This document shows positions 2,733 through 41,553 of a DNA stretch of 63,994 bases, in pieces. The stretch covers positions 25,377,543 to 25,441,536 of the forward strand of contig JAUZTB010000076.1 in the NCBI GenBank assembly GCA_034780895.1, written 5' to 3'. Source of the stretch: Rhynchobatus australiae (lineage: Eukaryota). The position numbers and the translations under genes are program-made. Every line of letters starts with the position of its first letter. The first letter of the stretch is position 1. Under the pieces are notes generated by a model. That model was not told the DNA's origin. It did not search any database and saw only the letters and a program-made list of their open reading frames with translations.

Positions 2733-4090
2733 TATTTAACATCACAAAACACGGCCATTTGATCCTTTGATTCTGCAACTGTATTTTTGTCCTCGGGGCT
2801 AATTCCATTCTTCTGTTCAATTCTCATATTCTTCAAAATTCTGCCTAAGAGGAAGAAGTTAATCTGCACTGATTCTGTGTATGGTTTTATCTTTAGTAAT
2901 AAATCAGAAATGAGTCCAGAATGTCATTCAGACTGAGAATAGATGGGGCCACAAAAATCTTATTTTCTCAACGCAATACAGGCTAGTCCTGCCAGATGCT
3001 TAACAANNNNNNNNNNNNNNNNNNNNNNNNNNNNNNNNNNNNNNNNNNNNNNNNNNNNNNNNNNNNNNNNNNNNNNNNNNNNNNNNNNNNNNNNNNNNNN
3101 NNNNNNTTAACAATCAATGCAAGTTATCTGATGAAAGAAAAACACTGATTATAACTATGTAATGGTTCATTATCAATTTCTCTTCATCTTCATCCATTTG
3201 ATGTATTGCTTATTGTAGTTTCTATTGACTGTGATCTCCTATCCTGAGATTCACACTTTTATCAATAAGAAATCAACAGTATTAGCTTGGGAAATTAAAG
3301 CTGTGCAAGTGTTTACCACCAAAGTAGATAGTTCTTTAGAAAATTAGGCTACCCTCACTTCAGCTTCGTAGTTTATTGTTTATGCATGCAGTCATGGAGT
3401 CATACAATATGGAAATGGGCCTTTTGCCCAACTGGTCCATGCTGATAAAGATAGCCACCCAAGCTAGTCCCATATATCCATTTGTGGTGTATATGCTCAA
3501 GGTATTTTTGTATGAGGTTAAATCTGGGTATGTTTGCATTGATTAACATTGAAAAGTCTCCATCAAGGCTTATTTGTTAATGTTGTTCTTCAACCATGAG
3601 GAAAAACAAATATCTCTTCTCATAAACTAAAATAAAAATTGCAAATGTATCCATCCAGCTTGCCAGTAAACCAGTAAATATGTTGTATGTTTAAGACAAT
3701 ATTGTAATTTATAGTTTATGGACAACATAACTTGAGAGTTTGCATGATAGCTTCTTAGGACATTCTGCAGTAATCACAATAGAAGTTTTTTGTTGCTTAT
3801 CTGGTGAAGTTACTGCAAATCAACAAGAACAAGTTAGGAAATGGAAAGTTCAGGAATTCTGATTCTTCAGGGAGATGGATACACAAAAATCATTTAAAGT
3901 AACAATCCTAATTGTTAAGATCACAGATTCTTTGGTATTATATTCTTGGCATTATATTCAGCTGCACAGAGAAAAAAAGAGGAATTTTGAAGAGTATGAG
4001 GAGTGAACAGAAGAATGGAATTAGTCCAGAGGGCAAAAATACTGTTGCAAAATCAAAGGATCAAATGGCTGTGTTTTGCGATGTTAAATA
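2733..4090. repeat. Long-range inverted repeat: 109-bp arms at 2733-2841 and 3982-4090
   Basis: Ungapped reverse-complement match with 10 mismatches in 109 (hand count). It explains the near-identical peptides in ORFs 2672-2869(-) and 3912-4148(+). Confidence 0.95.
3390..3480 (-). mobile_element. CR1 3' end fragment
   Basis: agtcatggagtcatac...ggtccatgctga...caagctagtccca, matching the CR1 3' ends at 27816 and 35817. Confidence 0.75.
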
Positions 4091-4629
4091 TAATGGTTTT
4101 AAAACATTGAAATTACAAGAAAGAAGGGGATGTACTTCTAGAATTTAGGAACATATTGGAGTGGATTTGGAAAAACTAATGCATTTTCAGCAATGAATAG
4201 ATGCCAAAATATGGTTATAAAGAGTAATGATTACACAAAGTAATTTTATATTAGAATATATGTTTGGTACTATAACAAAGGACCACAGGAGTTTTAATAA
4301 AGATAGAGGGCTGACAGATGTTTGCATCAGATAATGAATCATTCAGAATGATTATCAGATTGCATCCAGATGATTTATTCAACATGTAAATTCAGGTTAC
4401 TTTCTACACTCTGTGATTATAGCATGAAGTTCTGAGGCAGTGTTGTCCTTTTGTTTTGCCAGTGGAGGGTACTGGAAGGATGCTCTTGTGATTCATGTAT
4501 TGTGATTATACTGGACAATTAACAATGTTGAAGTAATTGTTGCGAGCTTATTCTGTCATAATTGCCTGTTAATATCTGAGGAATAACATTACAATACAAC
4601 GATGAGCAGAGGAAATTATAGTGTGTTTT

Positions 4630-5125
4630 GATAGCATCACGCAGCACTGAAAGAGACCAATCGGCCCATTGTTTTTGTGCCAGTGAAAGAATTAATTATC
4701 TTTTATCCTTTTCCAGTTGCCTTGTATATATTTTCTTTTAAAATATTCAATGTCCATTTCACTTTCAGGTAGTGCACTCTATATTATAACTCCTGGGTAT
4801 TTTTTTTCCCTGTCAGCTGTTTTGTTAATTAGCTTAAATCAGTAGCTACCGATCCTGTTGCCACAGGAAACATTTTGTCCTTTTTTATTCTGTCAAATCT
4901 CTTCATGATCTTAAGTACCACTATAAAAGCTGTCTTTCATCATTTCTAACTCTAAGGAAAAGCAACCCTAGCAAGGGCAACCCCAGCTTCTCTTGTCTCT
5001 GTAAGTAACTGAAGTCTTTCATTCCTGGTGCCATCGTAATAAATCCCATCTACAATCTTGCAATGGCTTTGACATTCCTCCTAAAAGTGTCCTGCCCAGA
5101 GTTGGCTATGGTATTCCAGCTGTGT
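4630..5125 (-). mobile_element. Degenerate CR1 3' region
   Basis: Diverged similarity to other CR1 3' ends (cagcactgaaagagaccaatcggccca; tgcccagagttggctatggtattccagctg). Confidence 0.55.
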
Positions 5126-5169
5126 TGTAATATTCTGGATGAAATACTGTGTCAAGACCCATCTTTACT

Positions 5170-5412
5170 TTCAGGTGGATGCAGAAAAATCCTATGACAC
5201 TATTTAAAAGAAAAGCACTGTTCTGATTAGATTTATCTCTCAACTTCCTTTACTGAAATAAGTGATCTGATCACTATGGCTTTGCTGTTTATGGAGTCTT
5301 ACTGTAAAAATAGATTACTAGATTTTCTGTATGAGAGTAATTACTATAATTCAAAGTTTGCTTTGTTGTAACATTCTTTGGGATATTCTGGAGTGAAATG
5401 GATGATATAAAT
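5170..5412 (+). mobile_element. Deu-domain SINE (SacSINE1/AmnSINE1-like), partial
   Basis: tcaggtggatgcagaaaaatcctatgacactatt...ttgctgtttatggagtcttactgt...ctttgggatattctgg...atataaat fits the Deu-domain and tail consensus. Confidence 0.7.
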
Positions 5413-6292
5413 ACCCTGCAACTTCAAAGATGTATATTCGAACAAATCAATTCACCAATTTTATCTGCCAGTTATTAGTTTGTTTCGTCCTTCCATTCAT
5501 GTTTTCTTGATGTCTGCCTCTCTTCAGAAGTAACCATGTTGCTTATTTTAACACCACAAGTAAACTTTATCGTATACAATGTAGTATAGCCAATGCCATC
5601 CAATGAGGGGCACAAATGTATGTCTCTTCAATTTAGTAAATAGCAACTCACTCATCCTTGCTGCATTTTGTTCTGTTGCAGTTCTTGTAGGCACAATGAT
5701 TTTTTTCTTAATTCCATGGATTTAAATTATGTTAACAAACCTCTTGAAAGGTATTTGATAAAGAACTGCTTGAATATACAGATATACAGCATCAACCACA
5801 CTCCCTTCATGAACTCTCTTCCATTTGCCTTTTACAGAATAGTACAGGGTTGTATTTATTAATTAGCACTTGGAAATGCCATATGGATTAATATTGTGTT
5901 AATTTAAAATGGAGTGAGTGGGATATGGTGTTGGAGGAGAGATGGAGATATGGTTAAATGATCTGGAGCAGAGAACATGAGAAACCTTTTACTTGAGGGT
6001 TATGAGGCAATGCAATCCACTACTTCGGTCAGTCAGTGAACCAGAGATTATTTCAGTAATAGATTACATATGTAATGTAAAAAGGGTAAAGTAGGGTGCA
6101 TAGGATGAGGACTACCATTTGCATCCCTGATGAATATCAATCACAGAATAATCTTGTTTCAGTGTTGTAATGTCTGAATGTTAGGGTAAATGGGATTTCA
6201 AATTCTTATCCTTGAAACTAGAGTGGGTGGATGGGTGGGATGGTGGTGGTAGTTGAAATGACAGTGGTACATGAATTTTACCTGTGAAAAAT

Positions 6293-6845
6293 GAAAACTT
6301 ATTTATATAGTGCCTTTCAAGGCCTCAACATGCTCCAAATGGTTTCACAGTTAATAGTTTTTTTTGAGATGTATGATGTAGGAAATGAGGCAGTTAATTT
6401 GCTAACCACAACAAGATTTCATAAAAAGCAATACAATAATGGCTAAATAACCTTAATGATTGTGAAGCAAACAAATTACAGATTTGAAATAAATAATATT
6501 TGAAATGTGCAGAACCCCAAAAGCCATTCAAAGCAGAATAGCAATCAAGTAATCTGATAGCTGTTGCAGAGCAATATCACAGTAAGCAGATAGTTTACCA
6601 CTGTTGTTATAGTTTGATGGATAAATATTAGCCATGGTGCCGAAAAGAACTCCTGGTTATTTCAAGTGGTGCCTTAGAATCTTTTCCATTGGCATGAAAG
6701 ATAAAACTGAATCTCTATTTAGGTGGCACATTTGGCGGTGCCAAACTCCCTTTGTATTGCTCAGGGGTTTGTGTTGGAATCCTTGAGAGTGTCCTGAGTA
6801 TCTTTCTTTCTCAGTCAGTGGTGAAAATGACACTGGGCTCCCAGC
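6293..6845 (-). mobile_element. Deu-domain SINE
   Basis: Reverse complement of the same consensus (acttatttatatagtgcctttca...gataaatattagcc...gtgccttagaatctttt). Confidence 0.7.
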
Positions 6846-7607
6846 CAAGAGGATTGAGGTAGAGGCAGCACAGTGGCACTATTTCCCTGTCCTTCCATCT
6901 GTCTCTTTTTTTTCCCCTGTGAGTTCTTGTTACCTTTCAGAGCAGGTGGGTAGGCTTTCACTCTATCATTGAATTTTTTTTCCCTTATTTCTCCTTATTC
7001 CCCTCTCTCTCCTTTCCCTTGTTCCTCTCTTCCTCTACTTACTCTTTGCTCTCTCTCTCTCTCTCTCTCTTCCTTTCCCTCAATCACTCCTGGTGTTTTT
7101 GTTGCCCATTTAATCACAAGACAGCAACTTTGAGAATTGCTTGTCATTGGCAGGTAGGTAGCTTTTGTTCCTTCGTCTCTAAATTAATCCAGACTATCGA
7201 AACAACAGGAATAGAGGGGGACAGTCCAGCAGCTATGCAGGGAGGGGATGGAAAGTGGGGTGTCTGATGTCCACGGTAAGGTAGCAAGCTGAAAGTGGCC
7301 TATTTTGTGATCTTATCAATGATTGGGCTTCCTGAATGAGGATAATGACCTCAAATAGGATTACAACATCAAGTGATATTTATGGCACTGAAGAAATCAT
7401 TGTGACATTTTGCTGAAGCTTTATTTTGAGCACCAGATTCTTTGATATTTACTCAGTATTAAAATTCCATGCTGTGGAAAACTTGCTTGTACAAGTACTT
7501 TTGCGCCTCAGTGGATTTGTTTGTATTTTACATAGCTTTACATGACTTTGGTTTGCATTGAGTCCATAATGCAGTTCTTTACCTGTGGCAAACCTCACAG
7601 TTAGCAT

Positions 7608-7875
7608 ATTGAACGGTTCCCTTATACAATGAGATGGACGAGGACCTCACGATCTACCCTCTTGTGAACTTGCACCTTATTGCACTGCACTTTCTCTGTA
7701 GCTGTGACACTTTATTCTGTACTGTTACTCTTTTTACCTGTACTACATCAATGCACTTTGTACTAACTCAATGTAACTACATTGTGTAATGAATTGAGCT
7801 GTACGATCAGTTTGTAAGACAAGCTTTTCACTACCTCGGTACTAATGACAATAATAAACCAATACCAATACCAAT
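7608..7875 (+). mobile_element. Rex1/Babar LINE 3' UTR
   Basis: Same 3' UTR as the Rex1 copies at 17520 and 26771; ends in aataataaaccaataccaatacca. Confidence 0.85.
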
Positions 7876-10041
7876 CTCAAGGACTGCTAATGAGTCTGTG
7901 CATCAATTCCTCTGCCTTCCCCCTAGTATTGTATCTTATGTAACCACTTCAGGAAAGAAAGCCAAATGGATTTTGTCCCATCATGCTTTCAATGGTTCAT
8001 CTTGTTTGTAGTCTTGGAGATGACACTCAACTTCAAATTTTACTAAAAGCTTTAATATTGCAAACAAATTGCAAGTTTCAATTTGAATTTTTTTCAGGGG
8101 ACTAGAATGTGTTATGTTTTGTGTACTCATAACAATGGTGCCCAGCTGCAGCATTATCCGATAATAACCCAGTGATAAATACTGAAATGTTTTCACTGCA
8201 AAAATGTATAGAGTGATTATCCACCTTTATTTGCCACCTTTAAACCAAGTTTATAATTCATAGATTTTATGATGGTGAATATCCAGCTTCTAGTCTGTAA
8301 ATAAAAAGAAATTTTTGCTGTATTGCAGATAAAATATTATTAAATTCACTGCCAGCCAAATTGAAAGGGAAGGAATTTTATGGTTTTTTAGAAAAGATGT
8401 ACAAATTTATTTGATTAGCAATTAGTAAGCAGGTTTCTTTACACCCTCCTTTAATTTGGATGTTATCAGTTGCTTTGCTCAAAGCAATTCTGTCCATGTA
8501 ACCGATATTGGAAAAATCCTTTTCCTTCTAAATGAATTCTCTATTCATGGTTCACTTTCAAGATAAATCCATACCTAATCCAAGCATAGAATTGAAATGG
8601 GCCAGATCACTTCCCATTCAGCACATTATCTAGACAATATTTGGATGTCCAAGCATAAAATGCTCGCCAATTATTCATGTTTTTCATTTTTCAGCGCACT
8701 GAATTTTGTCAGTCATCTTTCGTTCAGTTACAGCTTCTTGTAAAACATTGTATTTCATATAATGAAGTGTTTTAATTTAGATTCAGTTGCAGCATGAATA
8801 ACCAAATGAGGTGACGTTCTGCAAGTATTACAGATCGATCACATTTAATAAACGGTCTGCAGAAACCTTGATCTAAATATATTTTTATTGGCAAATGTCA
8901 AAAGTAAGGAGATTATGAGCTTAATAGCTTTCATTGTAGAAGCACTAGTTTCATTTTAATGTTCTCTTAGAACTTTAACAGTGGAGGAATTTGTTCCATG
9001 TATGTGTATAAAGAAAAAGATATATATATACTGGCTGCTGTGTGTTCCTACATTTTTATCTTTCACACCAAATAATCTTGACAAACTGTGTGTTTAAGAT
9101 AACTTTTGGTTCTACATCACTTGGTAACGTAAATACTACACAGATGTAGTTAGAAAAACAACTCAAAAATACATTCACTATCATATTTATAATAGCAAAA
9201 CAGAATTTAAGATAGTAATTTGATATCTGGTTTTATATGGTGAATATAAGTTGGTTCTGCATTTTAGGATAACGTTTGAACAACTTAATTTGATTACTGC
9301 CTTGAACTTCCCTAAGAAGTATTGATTTCCTTGATGTAGTACAGGGAGAGTTCTACTACAGAATACGCAGATATTACTGATTCAAAATTCAATTGCTGGT
9401 CTACAGTACAGCAACACCTGCAAGTTTAGAACCTAAATTTACTTCAAGTCCTACCAAAACAGAATGAAGCTAAAATCAGTTGGAGTTTAATTGTACAATT
9501 ATATTTATTGCACATTGTACAAAATCTTGTAACAAATAATATTTAATATAGTAGTATGTTTTAAATCTAATGTATTCAAAGTTCCAAAAATTACTGCAAT
9601 TTTTCTATATTTTAATGATTTTTTAATACATCTCATCATTGAGCTGAAGGCTATAATACTTTTTTAAAAAAATGCTAAATCTTTAGGTTCATTTCTTCAT
9701 TGTGTAAGAGTTCTATTGCTGGGTCTAAATTGTTGGAAAAATGGTTACATAGGAATTTTTGAGGAGGCCTCCCTATGAAGATGTATATCAATGTTATCAT
9801 TTGTGTTCTTATTTCAATGTTTAAGTCACCGATATAGTTTGTTTCAGAAAAATGTTGAAAGTTATTTCTGTTAAGATTATAAAACAGGAAGCAGCATTGC
9901 AGATTTCCCATTCAGTGGATCTTTAGCTGTTTGGATAGTAGCTTGGCTTAAACTTATCTCCATAATCTAACAACTATCATAAGAGCTTAATAAAAAGGCT
10001 TGTACTATAATAGAATCAAACTCTTTCCCTTTTTCTCTTAG

Positions 10042-10114
10042 GCTGCCAGGACAATGCCAGTACTTGGGTCTGCCAGTCCCTGATTACTTCAAGAAGTGGA
10101 TTAATCTCAAAAAG
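10042..10114 (+). CDS. ERI3: Internal coding exon of ERI1 exoribonuclease family member 3 (DEDDh 3'-5' exonuclease)
   Basis: Pyrimidine tract and TAG acceptor (ctctttccctttttctcttag), then a 73-nt exon reading G|CTG CCA GGA CAA TGC CAG TAC...AAT CTC AAA AAG = (M)LPGQCQYLGLPVPDYFKKWINLKK, then donor AAG|gtactt. Matches my recall of vertebrate ERI3 (MLPGQCQYLGLPVADYFKQWINLKK). Too short for the ORF track. Confidence 0.93.
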
Positions 10115-19204: not shown

Positions 19205-19413
19205 ACTGCAAATGCTAGAAATCTGTGCTGGAAATATTCAACAAGTCGGGCAGTATCAGTGGAGAGAGCAGCAGAATTAACATTTCAGGTTAATGGCCCT
19301 TCATCAGAATCAGGACCATTTTCTCATGAAAGGTCATAAATCTGAAATATTAGGTTTGTCATCAAAGTTGATGCCTGACTTATTGAGTATTTCCAACACT
19401 TTCTGTCTTAATT
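19205..19413. mobile_element. Inverted (head-to-head) pair of Penelope-like termini
   Basis: tgctggaaatattcaacaagtcgggca...cccttcatcag is followed by its diverged reverse complement ctcatgaaagg...tgcctgacttattgagtatttccaaca. Confidence 0.75.
19274..19311 (-). ncRNA. Minimal type I hammerhead ribozyme motif (intact core)
   Basis: Minus strand GAUU-CUGAUGA-AGG-GCCAUUAA-CCU-GAAAU-GUU/AAUU; stems I and II pair by WC or G-U. Confidence 0.6.
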
Positions 19414-19850: not shown

Positions 19851-19967
19851 ATGTGTGTGTGTGTGNNNNNNNNNNNNNNNNNNNNNNNNNNNNNNNNNNN
19901 NNNNNNNNNNNNNNNNNNNNNNNNNNNNNNNNNNNNNNNNNNNNNNNNNNNNNNNNNNNNNNNNNTG

Positions 19968-20002
<35 letters not shown>
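19851..20002. repeat. (TG)n and (CA)n microsatellites flanking a 100-N gap
   Basis: Directly visible. Confidence 0.9.
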
Positions 20003-21244: not shown

Positions 21245-21995
21245 GACACGAGACTGTAGATGCTGGAATCTGGAGCAACAAAGAAGATACTGGAGGAATT
21301 CAGCGGGTCAGGCAGCATCTGTGGAGAGAAATGGATAGTCGACATTTCAGGTTGACTCTCTTGATCAAGACTGAAANNNNNNNNNNNNNNNNNNNNNNNN
21401 NNNNNNNNNNNNNNNNNNNNNNNNNNNNNNNNNNNNNNNNNNNNNNNNNNNNNNNNNNNNNNNNNNNNNNNNNNNNCATTTCAGTTTGACTCTCTTGATC
21501 AAGACTGAAAGACAGAGGGGGAATTGCCAGTATAAAAAGGTGAAGGGAAGGAATGGATCAAGAGCTAGGTGGATCAAGGTGAGGAGGGGTGATAGGCAGA
21601 TGGAGGAGGGGAGAGTGGAAAACGTGACAGAGGTTGGGGGGTGATAGGTGGAGGTGACAAAGGGCTTCAGATGCAGATAGGACAGGAAGGTGGAGCATGG
21701 AATCAAGTAAGGGAGGTGGGGAGAGCAGATAGGGAACAGTGGTGGGAGGGGAACCAGTGGAAGGAGTGTGTTGGTGATGAGCAGTCAGAATGGCTGGAGG
21801 AGGGGAAAGAGAAAAGGTGATGGGTTGAGTGAAGAAGTGGGTAGATCAGGAGGAGAGAGAAATGTGGCAGGGGGAGCAGTTTACCTGAAGTTGGAGAATT
21901 CAATGTTCATGCCATTGGGTTGTAGACTACCCGGGTGGAATATGAGATGCCATTCCCCTAGTCTGTGTTTAGCCTCACCCTGGCAGTGGAGGAGA
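21245..21995 (-). mobile_element. Penelope-like element 3' part (ORF C-terminus, purine/pyrimidine-biased UTR, terminus with mutated hammerhead)
   Basis: Minus ORF LLHCQGEAKHRLGEWHLIFHPGSLQPNGMNIEFSNFR fits the C-terminus of the Penelope GIY-YIG domain (LIxxLGTLxPxGLN). Terminus gatgctgcctgacc...ccagcatct is present. 21477-21510 duplicates 21343-21376 across a gap. Confidence 0.8.
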
Positions 21996-23625: not shown

Positions 23626-24104
23626 AAACATAACTAATTGAGTCCTAGCTGACGACTGGAAGTAAAACAATTGTAGTGGAGGAAATAATGGAGAGCTTCT
23701 TTCATCTTCCATTGAGAGCCAGCTAAATGGATGCATAATTGGCTTGATGGCAGGAAGTAGATGGTGACAGTGGAAGACTGGAACCCTGTGACTAGTGGTG
23801 TGGCACAGGGATCAGTGCTGGGCCTGTTGTTTGTCATTTAAATTAACGATTTGGGTAAGGTATGATTAGTAAGTTTGCTGATGAAACTAAAATAAGTGGT
23901 ACTATTGAGAGTGAAGAAGGTTATCAAAAGGGGATTTTGATCAGCTAGTTAAGTGGGCTAAGGAATGGCAAATAGCGTTCAATTCAGTTAAATGAGGTGT
24001 TGCATTTTAGAAAGACAAATAGAGTACGACTTTTACAGTGAATGGTAGGGCCCTGTAGAGTTTAATAGAATAAAGGGACCTTGGAGTCCTGATGACGGTT
24101 CTGA

Positions 24105-24188
24105 TCTCTTTCTTTCCAGTCCTGATGAAGGGTCTCGGCCCGAAACGTCAACTGTTTATTTCCCTCCATGGATGCTGCCTGACCTGCT
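24105..24188 (+). mobile_element. Penelope-like element terminus inserted in CR1 (runs into gap)
   Basis: tctttccagtcctgatgaagggtctcggcccgaaacgtcaactg...gatgctgcctgacctgct, near-identical to the reverse complement of 41105-41186. Confidence 0.85.
24117..24154 (+). ncRNA. Minimal type I hammerhead ribozyme motif (best copy, sense to ERI3)
   Basis: CAGUC-CUGAUGA-A-GGGU-CUCG-GCCC-GAAAC-GUC/AACUG. All core residues present, GUC cleavage triplet at 24147-24149, palindromic ACGU stem III, one C-A mismatch at the base of stem I. Confidence 0.75.
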
Positions 24189-24920
24189 NNNNNNNNNNNN
24201 NNNNNNNNNNNNNNNNNNNNNNNNNNNNNNNNNNNNNNNNNNNNNNNNNNNNNNNNNNNNNNNNNNNNNNNNNNNNNNNNNNNNNNNNNNNNNNNNNNNN
24301 NNNNNNNNNNNNNNNNNNNNCATGCTTGACTTCATCAGCCAGGGCATTGGTATAGGAGCTGGGATGTTATGTTGAAATTGTAGAAGATGTTGATGAGGCC
24401 ACACCTGGGGTAAAGTGTATAGTTTTGGTTACCCTGTTATAGGAAAGAAGTCATTAAGCTGGAAAGGGTGCAAAGAAGATTTATGAGAATGTTTCTGGGA
24501 CTCGAGGGCCTGAGTTTTAGGAAGGGGCTGAATTATAGGCTAGGACCTTAGAGCATAGGAGACTGAGGGGGACCATTATAGAGCTGTATAAAATCATCAT
24601 AAGGCTAAGGTGAGAGGGGAAAGATTTAAAAGGGACCTGAGGGTCAACTTCTTCGCACAGAGGGTGGTGCATATATGGAACGAGTTGAGGCAGGTACAAT
24701 ATATTTGGACTAGAACATTGATAGGAAAGGTTTAGAGAGATATGGGCCAAATGCAGGCAAATGCGACTAGTTTAGATGGGCATCTTGGTTGATATGGAGG
24801 TGTTGGGCTGAAGGGCCTGTTTCCGTGCTGTATTTCTTTATGACTCTATCCAAATGCCAGCAATCTCCTCAGATATGTTGACTTTTACCCACCTAAGTGG
24901 GTGAAATTTGAGGGCTCCCG

Positions 24921-41037: not shown

Positions 41038-41553
41038 GTAGACATAAGGGAGACTGCAGATGGTGGAAATCTGGAGTACCACACACAAAATGCTGGAGGA
41101 GCTCAGCAGGTCAGGCAGCATCTATGGAGGGAAATGAACAGTTGATGTTTCAGGCCGAAACCCTTCATCAGGACTGGAAAGAAAGANNNNNNNNNNNNNN
41201 NNNNNNNNNNNNNNGTCCAGGTGAGAGGGGGAAGGGTTAGTGGGGGAGGGGAGGGGGATGAAAAGGAGCGATGTGAGAAGCTGAGAGGTGATAGGCGGAA
41301 GAGGCAAAGGGCTGAAGATGGGAGGAATCCGGTAGGAGAGGGCAGTGGACCACAGAGAAAGGGGAAGGAGGTGGGGAGCAGATGGGCAGGTCATGACGGT
41401 GGGGGAGGGGAAAGAGAAGGGGTAAATGAGTCAGAGGGATAAGGGAAAACAAGAGGGGTGTGGTGGGAAAGAAGGGAGTGGTTATCGGAAGTTAGAAAAA
41501 TTGAAGTTCATGTCGACAGATTGGAGACTACCAAAGCAGAATATGCGATGTTC
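41038..41553 (-). mobile_element. Penelope-like element 3' part with a 12-bp target-site duplication
   Basis: ORF-end remnant (MNFNFSNFR), purine-rich tract and hammerhead terminus; tttattcttact at 41026-41037 and 41554-41565. Confidence 0.85.
41139..41176 (-). ncRNA. Minimal type I hammerhead ribozyme motif (antisense to ERI3)
   Basis: CAGUC-CUGAUGA-A-GGGU-UUCG-GCCU-GAAAC-AUC/AACUG. Core intact; stem III palindrome broken by a CpG-type change. Confidence 0.65.

Follow-up and report, generated by a model that had tools for sequence, protein, structure and literature searches.

A probably inert minimal hammerhead motif from a Penelope-like element terminus in an ERI3 intron of Rhynchobatus australiae

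Introduction

Penelope-like elements (PLEs) of metazoans carry minimal hammerhead ribozymes (min-HHRs; Cervera & De la Peña 2014, PMC4209133), and such motifs have been reported for the Neptune, Poseidon and Xena elements of fishes (PMC4209133). The ray family described in this study has in common with the published min-HHRs a type I layout with a short helix I, an extra nucleotide before G10.1, a G10.1-C11.1 pair, palindromic positions 15.2-16.2 without a loop 3, and an occurrence mostly as solo copies from truncated PLEs. It differs in helix II, which has 4-5 bp in the ray family and 7-8 bp in the Schistosoma min-HHR, and in abundance, with about 4x10^5 fragments and 1,480 intact motifs in the ray against 4,000-9,000 descriptor hits in PMC4209133, the counting methods being different. 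In the same source, a single Schistosoma min-HHR gave no cleavage and dimers gave low cleavage; among Xenopus dimers, one of nine cleaved and eight did not (bioRxiv 2026.07.22.740005).

Two groups of PLEs are closest to the element studied here. The EN+ PLEs of the Neptune clade (PMC8557442) share with it a C-terminal GIY-YIG domain with an internal Cys pair, a CX2-5CxxC linker, partial-tandem and inverted termini, an optional tail of 30-40 bp, and a hammerhead in the pLTR; the linker finger characterises both Neptune and Nematis (Craig et al. 2021, PMC8557442 / bioRxiv 2021.04.23.441226). PAc, a Poseidon element of Anolis carolinensis (PMC11167929), belongs to a different clade from the Neptune-type ray element. 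It resembles the latter in having its hammerhead at the pLTR-ORF junction and in having genomic 3' ends of two classes that lie shortly inside the ORF. The PAc ORF starts at stem II, so that the cut falls 26 nt inside it, whereas in the ray family the predicted cut lies 22 nt before the ATG and leaves the ORF whole. The PAc hammerhead cleaved only with its own protein, no RNA-seq reads ended at its cleavage site, and its cleavage was dispensable for insertion in vitro (PMC11167929).

Hammerheads are also known from introns of amniote genes (RECK, C10orf118/CTCL, DTNB), and like the motif reported here they are of type I, intronic and in sense orientation. Unlike it, they are conserved across species and cleave as monomers, whereas the motif in ERI3 is young and multicopy, has no stem III and carries a mismatch at its cut site. 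Non-LTR retrozymes have a type I hammerhead related to PLE termini, as does the ray family, and are present in the one chondrichthyan sampled (bioRxiv 10.64898/2026.07.22.740005). A search of the literature found no paper devoted to the PLE hammerheads of cartilaginous fishes; supplements may list such families.

Results

We analysed 63,994 nt of the R. australiae genome (contig JAUZTB010000076.1 of assembly GCA_034780895.1, positions 25,377,543 to 25,441,536; hereafter the window), in which an earlier note had proposed a PLE hammerhead at positions 24117-24154 of the plus strand. Inspection of the sequence agreed with its account of a hammerhead core, a 4-bp stem II, a loop-less palindromic stem III and a C-A mismatch. 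The arms of stem I are 24117-24121 (5') and 24150-24154 (3'), with the mismatch C24121·A24150 at pair 2.1-1.1; CUGAUGA occupies 24122-24128 and is followed by an extra A at 24129, stem II pairs 24130-24133 with 24138-24141 around a 4-nt loop, GAAA occupies 24142-24145, the palindromic ACGU 24145-24148, and C17 is 24149, which places the predicted cut at 24149/24150. The core boxes CUGANGA, GAAA and UH are thus present in type I order, together with the G10.1-C11.1 pair of helix II and an extra nucleotide between the core and helix II; there is no helix III or loop 3, and 15.2-16.2 is palindromic. The 2.1-1.1 pair adjoining the cut site is closed (C-G) in the majority of the family and open (C·A) in this copy.

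The proposed identity gained support from a minimal-hammerhead descriptor, whose single match in a 254-kb region was this motif, scored as mismatched at 1.1. Since the same descriptor returned only one match in 20 dinucleotide shuffles of 870,778 nt, the motif is more than chance. In 76 blind stretches of 10 kb it gave one intact match. By itself, the loose box pattern was weak, with 5 matches in the window against 1.85 expected. An Rfam scan of the window returned no hammerhead family at E<=1. Rfam hammerhead models are not expected to fit a motif without stem III. One contig of run X1 spans the upstream junction of the copy with zero differences; X1 possibly comes from the same DNA source and is therefore not independent.

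The sense orientation that had been assumed within ERI3 was confirmed. Ray and shark ERI3 proteins placed a coding exon with AG/GT ends 5' of the motif at 10043-10114 and the next exon at 70572-70670, outside the window; both are on the plus strand, so the motif lies in sense within an ERI3 intron of about 60 kb. An upstream exon, 29 kb 5', matched solved ERI3 structures at E 5.8e-18. The best protein matches indicate a ray-like cartilaginous fish. Two coding exons of ERI3, the one between LTGI... and LPGQ... and the last, did not turn up in the 254-kb region (window -38 kb to +164 kb), and are possibly hidden in N gaps or located further out; scanning the window by words for ERI3 exons gained nothing. 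The 3' end of ERI3 was not located, and a sense family copy at about 84.1 kb may fall in or outside the gene. The mapped ERI3 span contains 18 copies of the family, 9 sense and 9 antisense, and thus shows no sense-strand depletion (9/18), a comparison of low power. A second sense copy, 13.7 kb upstream of the window, has intact core boxes, mismatched stems and a different palindrome. The statement that the motif is the only core-intact copy transcribed with ERI3 consequently holds inside the window and by the strict descriptor, but not by core boxes alone over the mapped gene.

The motif belongs to a very abundant family. Its first 33 nt occur in 208 exact genome copies (reversed control, 0), and a profile of the terminus of about 94 nt found 142 matches in the 76 blind stretches (646,665 non-N bases; reversed sequence, 0), which scales to about 4x10^5 fragments genome-wide, a rough figure in which inverted pairs are counted twice. 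A degenerate pattern in which core boxes, stem II, palindrome and stem I base are all required, with A or G allowed at 1.1, matched 1,480 places in the genome; the core boxes were kept in 12 of the 77 blind copies that span the core. The window has 11 family termini, 4 sense and 7 antisense. Among them are the closest sister (41083-41176, minus strand, antisense to ERI3; 94% identical, with two CpG-type changes) and an older, longer fragment (21282-21994, minus strand) that retains the last ORF codons (21994-21884), a pyrimidine-rich UTR and a decayed hammerhead terminus. At 19225-19405, two older termini stand head-to-head in inverted orientation, one per strand, as is typical of PLE insertions. 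Sequence is duplicated on either side of 100-N gaps at 21343-21376 and 21477-21510, and a perfect inverted duplication adjoins a gap at 19852-19985; with similar pairs in L009 and L010, these look like assembly artefacts. Elsewhere in the window (35001-35271), an 89-nt unit is repeated three times in tandem at 97-98% identity.

The PLE origin that had been proposed for the terminus is now backed by a linked RT/GIY-YIG ORF. In sister copies, the end of the RT, a linker Zn-finger and a GIY-YIG domain lie upstream of the terminus on the same strand, and a UTR of about 270-560 nt separates this ORF from the hammerhead motif. Among 30 ORF-bearing loci, the terminus was found downstream on the same strand in 16, and most of the remaining 14 stop in gaps or at contig ends; an inverted terminus stood upstream in 5 of the 30; inverted termini are described for PLEs (PMC8557442). 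Ray relatives of the ORF have YIDD, a CX4CxxC linker and a GIY-YIG domain with an internal Cys pair (P0044, P0045, P0047), and the linker finger occurs in decayed form in locus L002. Pfam detected GIY-YIG in 3 of 4 ray relatives at E 5e-4 to 2e-3, just below the curated cut-off, and PF00078, often with PF01541, in full-length relatives of the ORF; it found no match in the decayed ORF pieces of L002. By its linker motif and host group, rather than by an RT tree, the element would most likely belong to the Neptune clade. Stops interrupt most of the 77 ORF matches listed, none of which was shown to be full-length and intact, and no intact full-length copy of the element was recovered; two copies 2.2 kb apart at C42 were considered as a full element and rejected, as an N gap lies between them.

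The 5' end of the ORF adjoins the terminus. The terminus runs into the ORF in 5 of the 21 loci that reach the ORF 5' end (L173, L167, L164, L172 and L171), and in the tandem copy L173 an ATG 22 nt past the cut opens a single frame into a conserved PLE N-terminus. This ATG corresponds to window 24172-24174; by comparison with L173, the first codons of the ORF are thus at 24172-24188 in the ERI3 intron, the remaining ORF being absent. The 3' ends of 29 close copies fell into two classes 35-40 nt apart (11 and 12 copies; 6 were cut by gaps), which fits the optional PLE tail of 30-40 bp (PMC8557442) and internal initiation as in PAc (PMC11167929).

The copy itself is a 5'-truncated terminal fragment (pLTR end) at 24096-24188 of the plus strand, which runs into an assembly gap. 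As sister contigs diverge at 24097-24105, only about 20 nt of the element is left upstream of the ribozyme. The fragment splits an older interspersed repeat, with an upstream half at 23900-24084 and a downstream half with a decayed reading frame at 24321-24850, both on the plus strand; this repeat is a LINE, which we take to be CR1-like. The second partial copy that had been noticed at 24085-24095 is present at the 5' junction, where it repeats the stem I/CUGAUGA segment; its first bases match the host LINE, and this 11-nt duplicate is likely a microhomology by-product of the insertion, a mechanism that we infer. The gap at 24189-24320 comprises 132 N. In other LINE alignments, the segments that flank the insertion are 54-60 nt apart in four of six, and 46 and 18 nt apart in the other two; judged against this spacing, the gap likely contains about 70 nt of remaining terminus and about 55-60 nt of host LINE. 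If the gap size is right, these segments fill the 132 N and leave no room for a second ribozyme unit. One hammerhead-bearing unit is visible (24096-24188), the content of the gap being deduced from its size, and a non-LTR retrozyme was rejected on these grounds: tandem hammerhead units would be needed, one unit is seen, and the gap size fits terminus plus LINE. Contigs of a related organism (X2) give no cover across the insertion junction and so have no bearing on its presence or absence there. A second young copy (L051:6220-6500) is followed by the LINE stretch that the window copy interrupts (window 24085-24320); the shared stretch beside two young copies is possibly a target preference or a coincidence.

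The mismatch at the base of stem I was traced to a minority form. With the rest of the sequence identical, the genome holds 218 exact copies with G1.1 and 41 with A1.1, and G accounted for 68% at 1.1 by depth in the X1 contigs. Three CpGs lie on 11.1-G12, 15.2-16.2 and 17-1.1; because all three show TG/CA forms among 20 young-type copies, A24150 likely reflects the loss of G1.1 by CpG deamination. When the base that follows the cut is mismatched, hammerhead cleavage is at least 500-fold slower (review PMC3138052). In the predicted monomer fold of the ERI3-intron copy, U4-G8 is paired with the cleavage strand and A24150 adds a pair to this inactive hairpin; the hammerhead-like fold is predicted to lie 4.1 kcal/mol above the hairpin, against 2.2 for a natural G1.1 copy. 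Given the real flanks (24070-24188 or 24000-24188), the hammerhead stems had a predicted probability of <=0.014. Homodimer co-folding produced an extended duplex and no double hammerhead for the ERI3-intron and natural G1.1 copies alike and is therefore non-discriminating. No compatible dimer partner was found among the nearby copies examined: the 24085-24095 fragment was rejected because it has no stem II or GAAA/UH strand, and the sense copy at -13.7 kb because its stem III palindrome differs and it is about 38 kb away. The suggestion that the mismatch and a missing partner may silence the motif thus gained weight from the minority A1.1, the predicted inactive hairpin and the failure to find a partner.

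Finally, we asked what the family retains. Across the 77 blind copies, conservation was 0.84-0.89 in the core columns, against 0.70 at the free N7 and 0.55 in loop II. The earlier note had looked to conserved boxes and covarying stems genome-wide; the boxes are conserved, and of the stems only pair 2.1-1.1 covaries (C-G 21, U-A 18 in 67 copies). Over the same 67 aligned copies, helix II was paired in 83%, and the structure as a whole was above slid-register controls (71.5% vs 19-39% paired) but not above shuffles (67/500 for the covariation score, 183/500 for percent paired). Pair 2.1-1.1 gave 27 CG, 28 TA, 15 CA and 10 TG in 80 of 90 rows (p=8e-4, a value that is not independent of relatedness), and subfamilies defined on the 3' part alone switch it between C-G and U-A; this covariation reflects very few events. 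As whole-structure covariation does not exceed shuffles, the case for selection on the fold is limited to the conserved core columns and this one pair. The palindrome 15.2-16.2 is CG in sisters, with CA/TG decay.

Discussion

Taken together, these data make it very probable that the motif is the min-HHR of a very abundant Neptune-type PLE, located in its terminal repeat, and that the copy in the ERI3 intron is a 5'-truncated, likely inert fragment. The motif is a real and ordinary member of the min-HHR class of EN+ PLEs. That the ERI3-intron copy is probably uncut is argued by its lack of a stem III of its own and of a partner, by the mismatch beside the scissile bond and by the predicted inactive fold. 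A point on the other side is that the copy is unusually well preserved, being the sole descriptor match in 254 kb. In an active tandem element, two motifs would pair via the ACGU palindrome into a double hammerhead, probably with help from the element protein, and would cut multimeric element transcripts into units. Reverse transcription would start slightly inside the ORF and would in most cases stop early, which would scatter short pieces of the terminus; one such fragment would have inserted into the older LINE, then likely lost G1.1 by CpG deamination, and would now be spliced out with the intron, uncut.

An alternative holds that in this family the motif has ceased to work as a ribozyme, or never did so, and is conserved for another role at the UTR/ORF junction, such as a splice acceptor region, protein binding or a reverse-transcription signal. 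It would account for whole-structure covariation at shuffle level, for a subfamily with C in the A9 column (17/17 members; 86 exact copies), for PAc insertion in vitro being independent of hammerhead cleavage (PMC11167929), and for the fact that most copies have a pyrimidine tract and YAG ahead of the ATG. Against it, the hammerhead boxes, the free N7, the G10.1 pair, the 15/16 palindrome and the compensated 2.1-1.1 pair all fit the published min-HHR consensus, and we regard it as unlikely. It leaves the verdict of an inert ERI3 copy unchanged.

Slightly less likely still is a low level of ERI3 pre-mRNA cutting helped in trans, by the element protein or by another family transcript that pairs with the copy via ACGU; such cutting would be a side effect with no selected role. 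The ERI3-intron copy has its core boxes, its stem II and 4 bp of its stem I intact, the fragment retains the downstream terminus, the genome offers 1,480 compatible copies, and protein-assisted cleavage is known for PAc (PMC11167929). Such help would nevertheless have to overcome the 2.1-1.1 mismatch and an inactive fold predicted for monomer and homodimer; moreover, among the 77 ORF matches listed, which mostly contain stops, none was shown to be full-length and intact, and the PAc site in Anolis RNA-seq had no reads ending at it (PMC11167929). Were it true that solo intronic copies cut host pre-mRNA with the element protein, the family would offer a tractable test of retroelement ribozyme domestication.

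Co-option of the copy to regulate the biogenesis of ERI3 mRNA, in the manner of the amniote intronic hammerheads (RECK, C10orf118), has in its favour the sense orientation, the best-preserved copy and sole descriptor match of the 254-kb region, and the amniote precedent (PMC6155905), but is extremely improbable for a young copy that is near-identical to hundreds of dispersed copies, nested in another repeat, altered by a decayed base, devoid of stem III and part of a family that is evenly split in ERI3 between sense (9) and antisense (9). A domesticated ribozyme of the RECK type (compared with PMC6155905, PMC3088659 and PMC10761166) was rejected as there is no stable helix III for monomer cleavage. 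That this copy is special or likely to matter to ERI3 is thus not supported: it is one of about 4x10^5 fragments and one of 1,480 intact motifs, its base has decayed, and the strands are balanced at 9/9.

For the probably inert PLE fragment, the significance lies in the family rather than in ERI3. As it stands, the finding extends the PLE min-HHR class to another cartilaginous-fish family and is of little importance. CpG decay would disarm solo copies, with a CpG each at G12, at the stem III palindrome and at the cut site. The cut 22 nt before the ATG, the acceptor-like signal at the ATG and the core variant bearing on the extra base could be useful for PLE mechanism; the literature examined, as far as the available text of those sources extends, did not yield a cut before the ORF, the pyrimidine tract with YAG at the ATG or the C core variant.

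The core variant is the subfamily with C in the A9 column, which has a shorter stem I and 86 exact genome matches (for example, L062:5213-5275 and L076:3460-3522) and is a candidate natural variant of the hammerhead core. The A after the A9 column is 0.95 conserved. Because this subfamily departs from A at A9 while the next A is so conserved, the extra base, which had been placed after A9, may instead stand between G8 and A9; otherwise, the core of the C subfamily may be altered.

The family also has a pyrimidine tract and YAG before the ATG, with CAG or TAG in 63 of 135 copies; the window copy has TGG (24155-24174; family columns 38-58). From its sequence this signal resembles a 3' splice site, and a sense copy with YAG that lies in a host intron could serve there as a cryptic acceptor. 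The idea of an obligate acceptor ahead of the ATG was not supported, as TGG occurs in the subfamily of the window copy and in 3 of 5 tandem junctions, and a splice donor judged by eye at the stop codon of the ORF was weak. It is conceivable, though very unlikely, that the element has a 5' leader intron with the hammerhead at its acceptor end, with splicing and self-cleavage as alternative fates, and that the element protein would switch on about 1,500 intact solo copies, including that of ERI3; if true, this would amount to a genome-wide, transposon-triggered layer of intron cutting in host transcripts. Two ray proteins annotated as mucin-2 and chitinase-domain protein isoforms (P0046, P0049) contain the element ORF, which suggests exonisation or mis-annotation.
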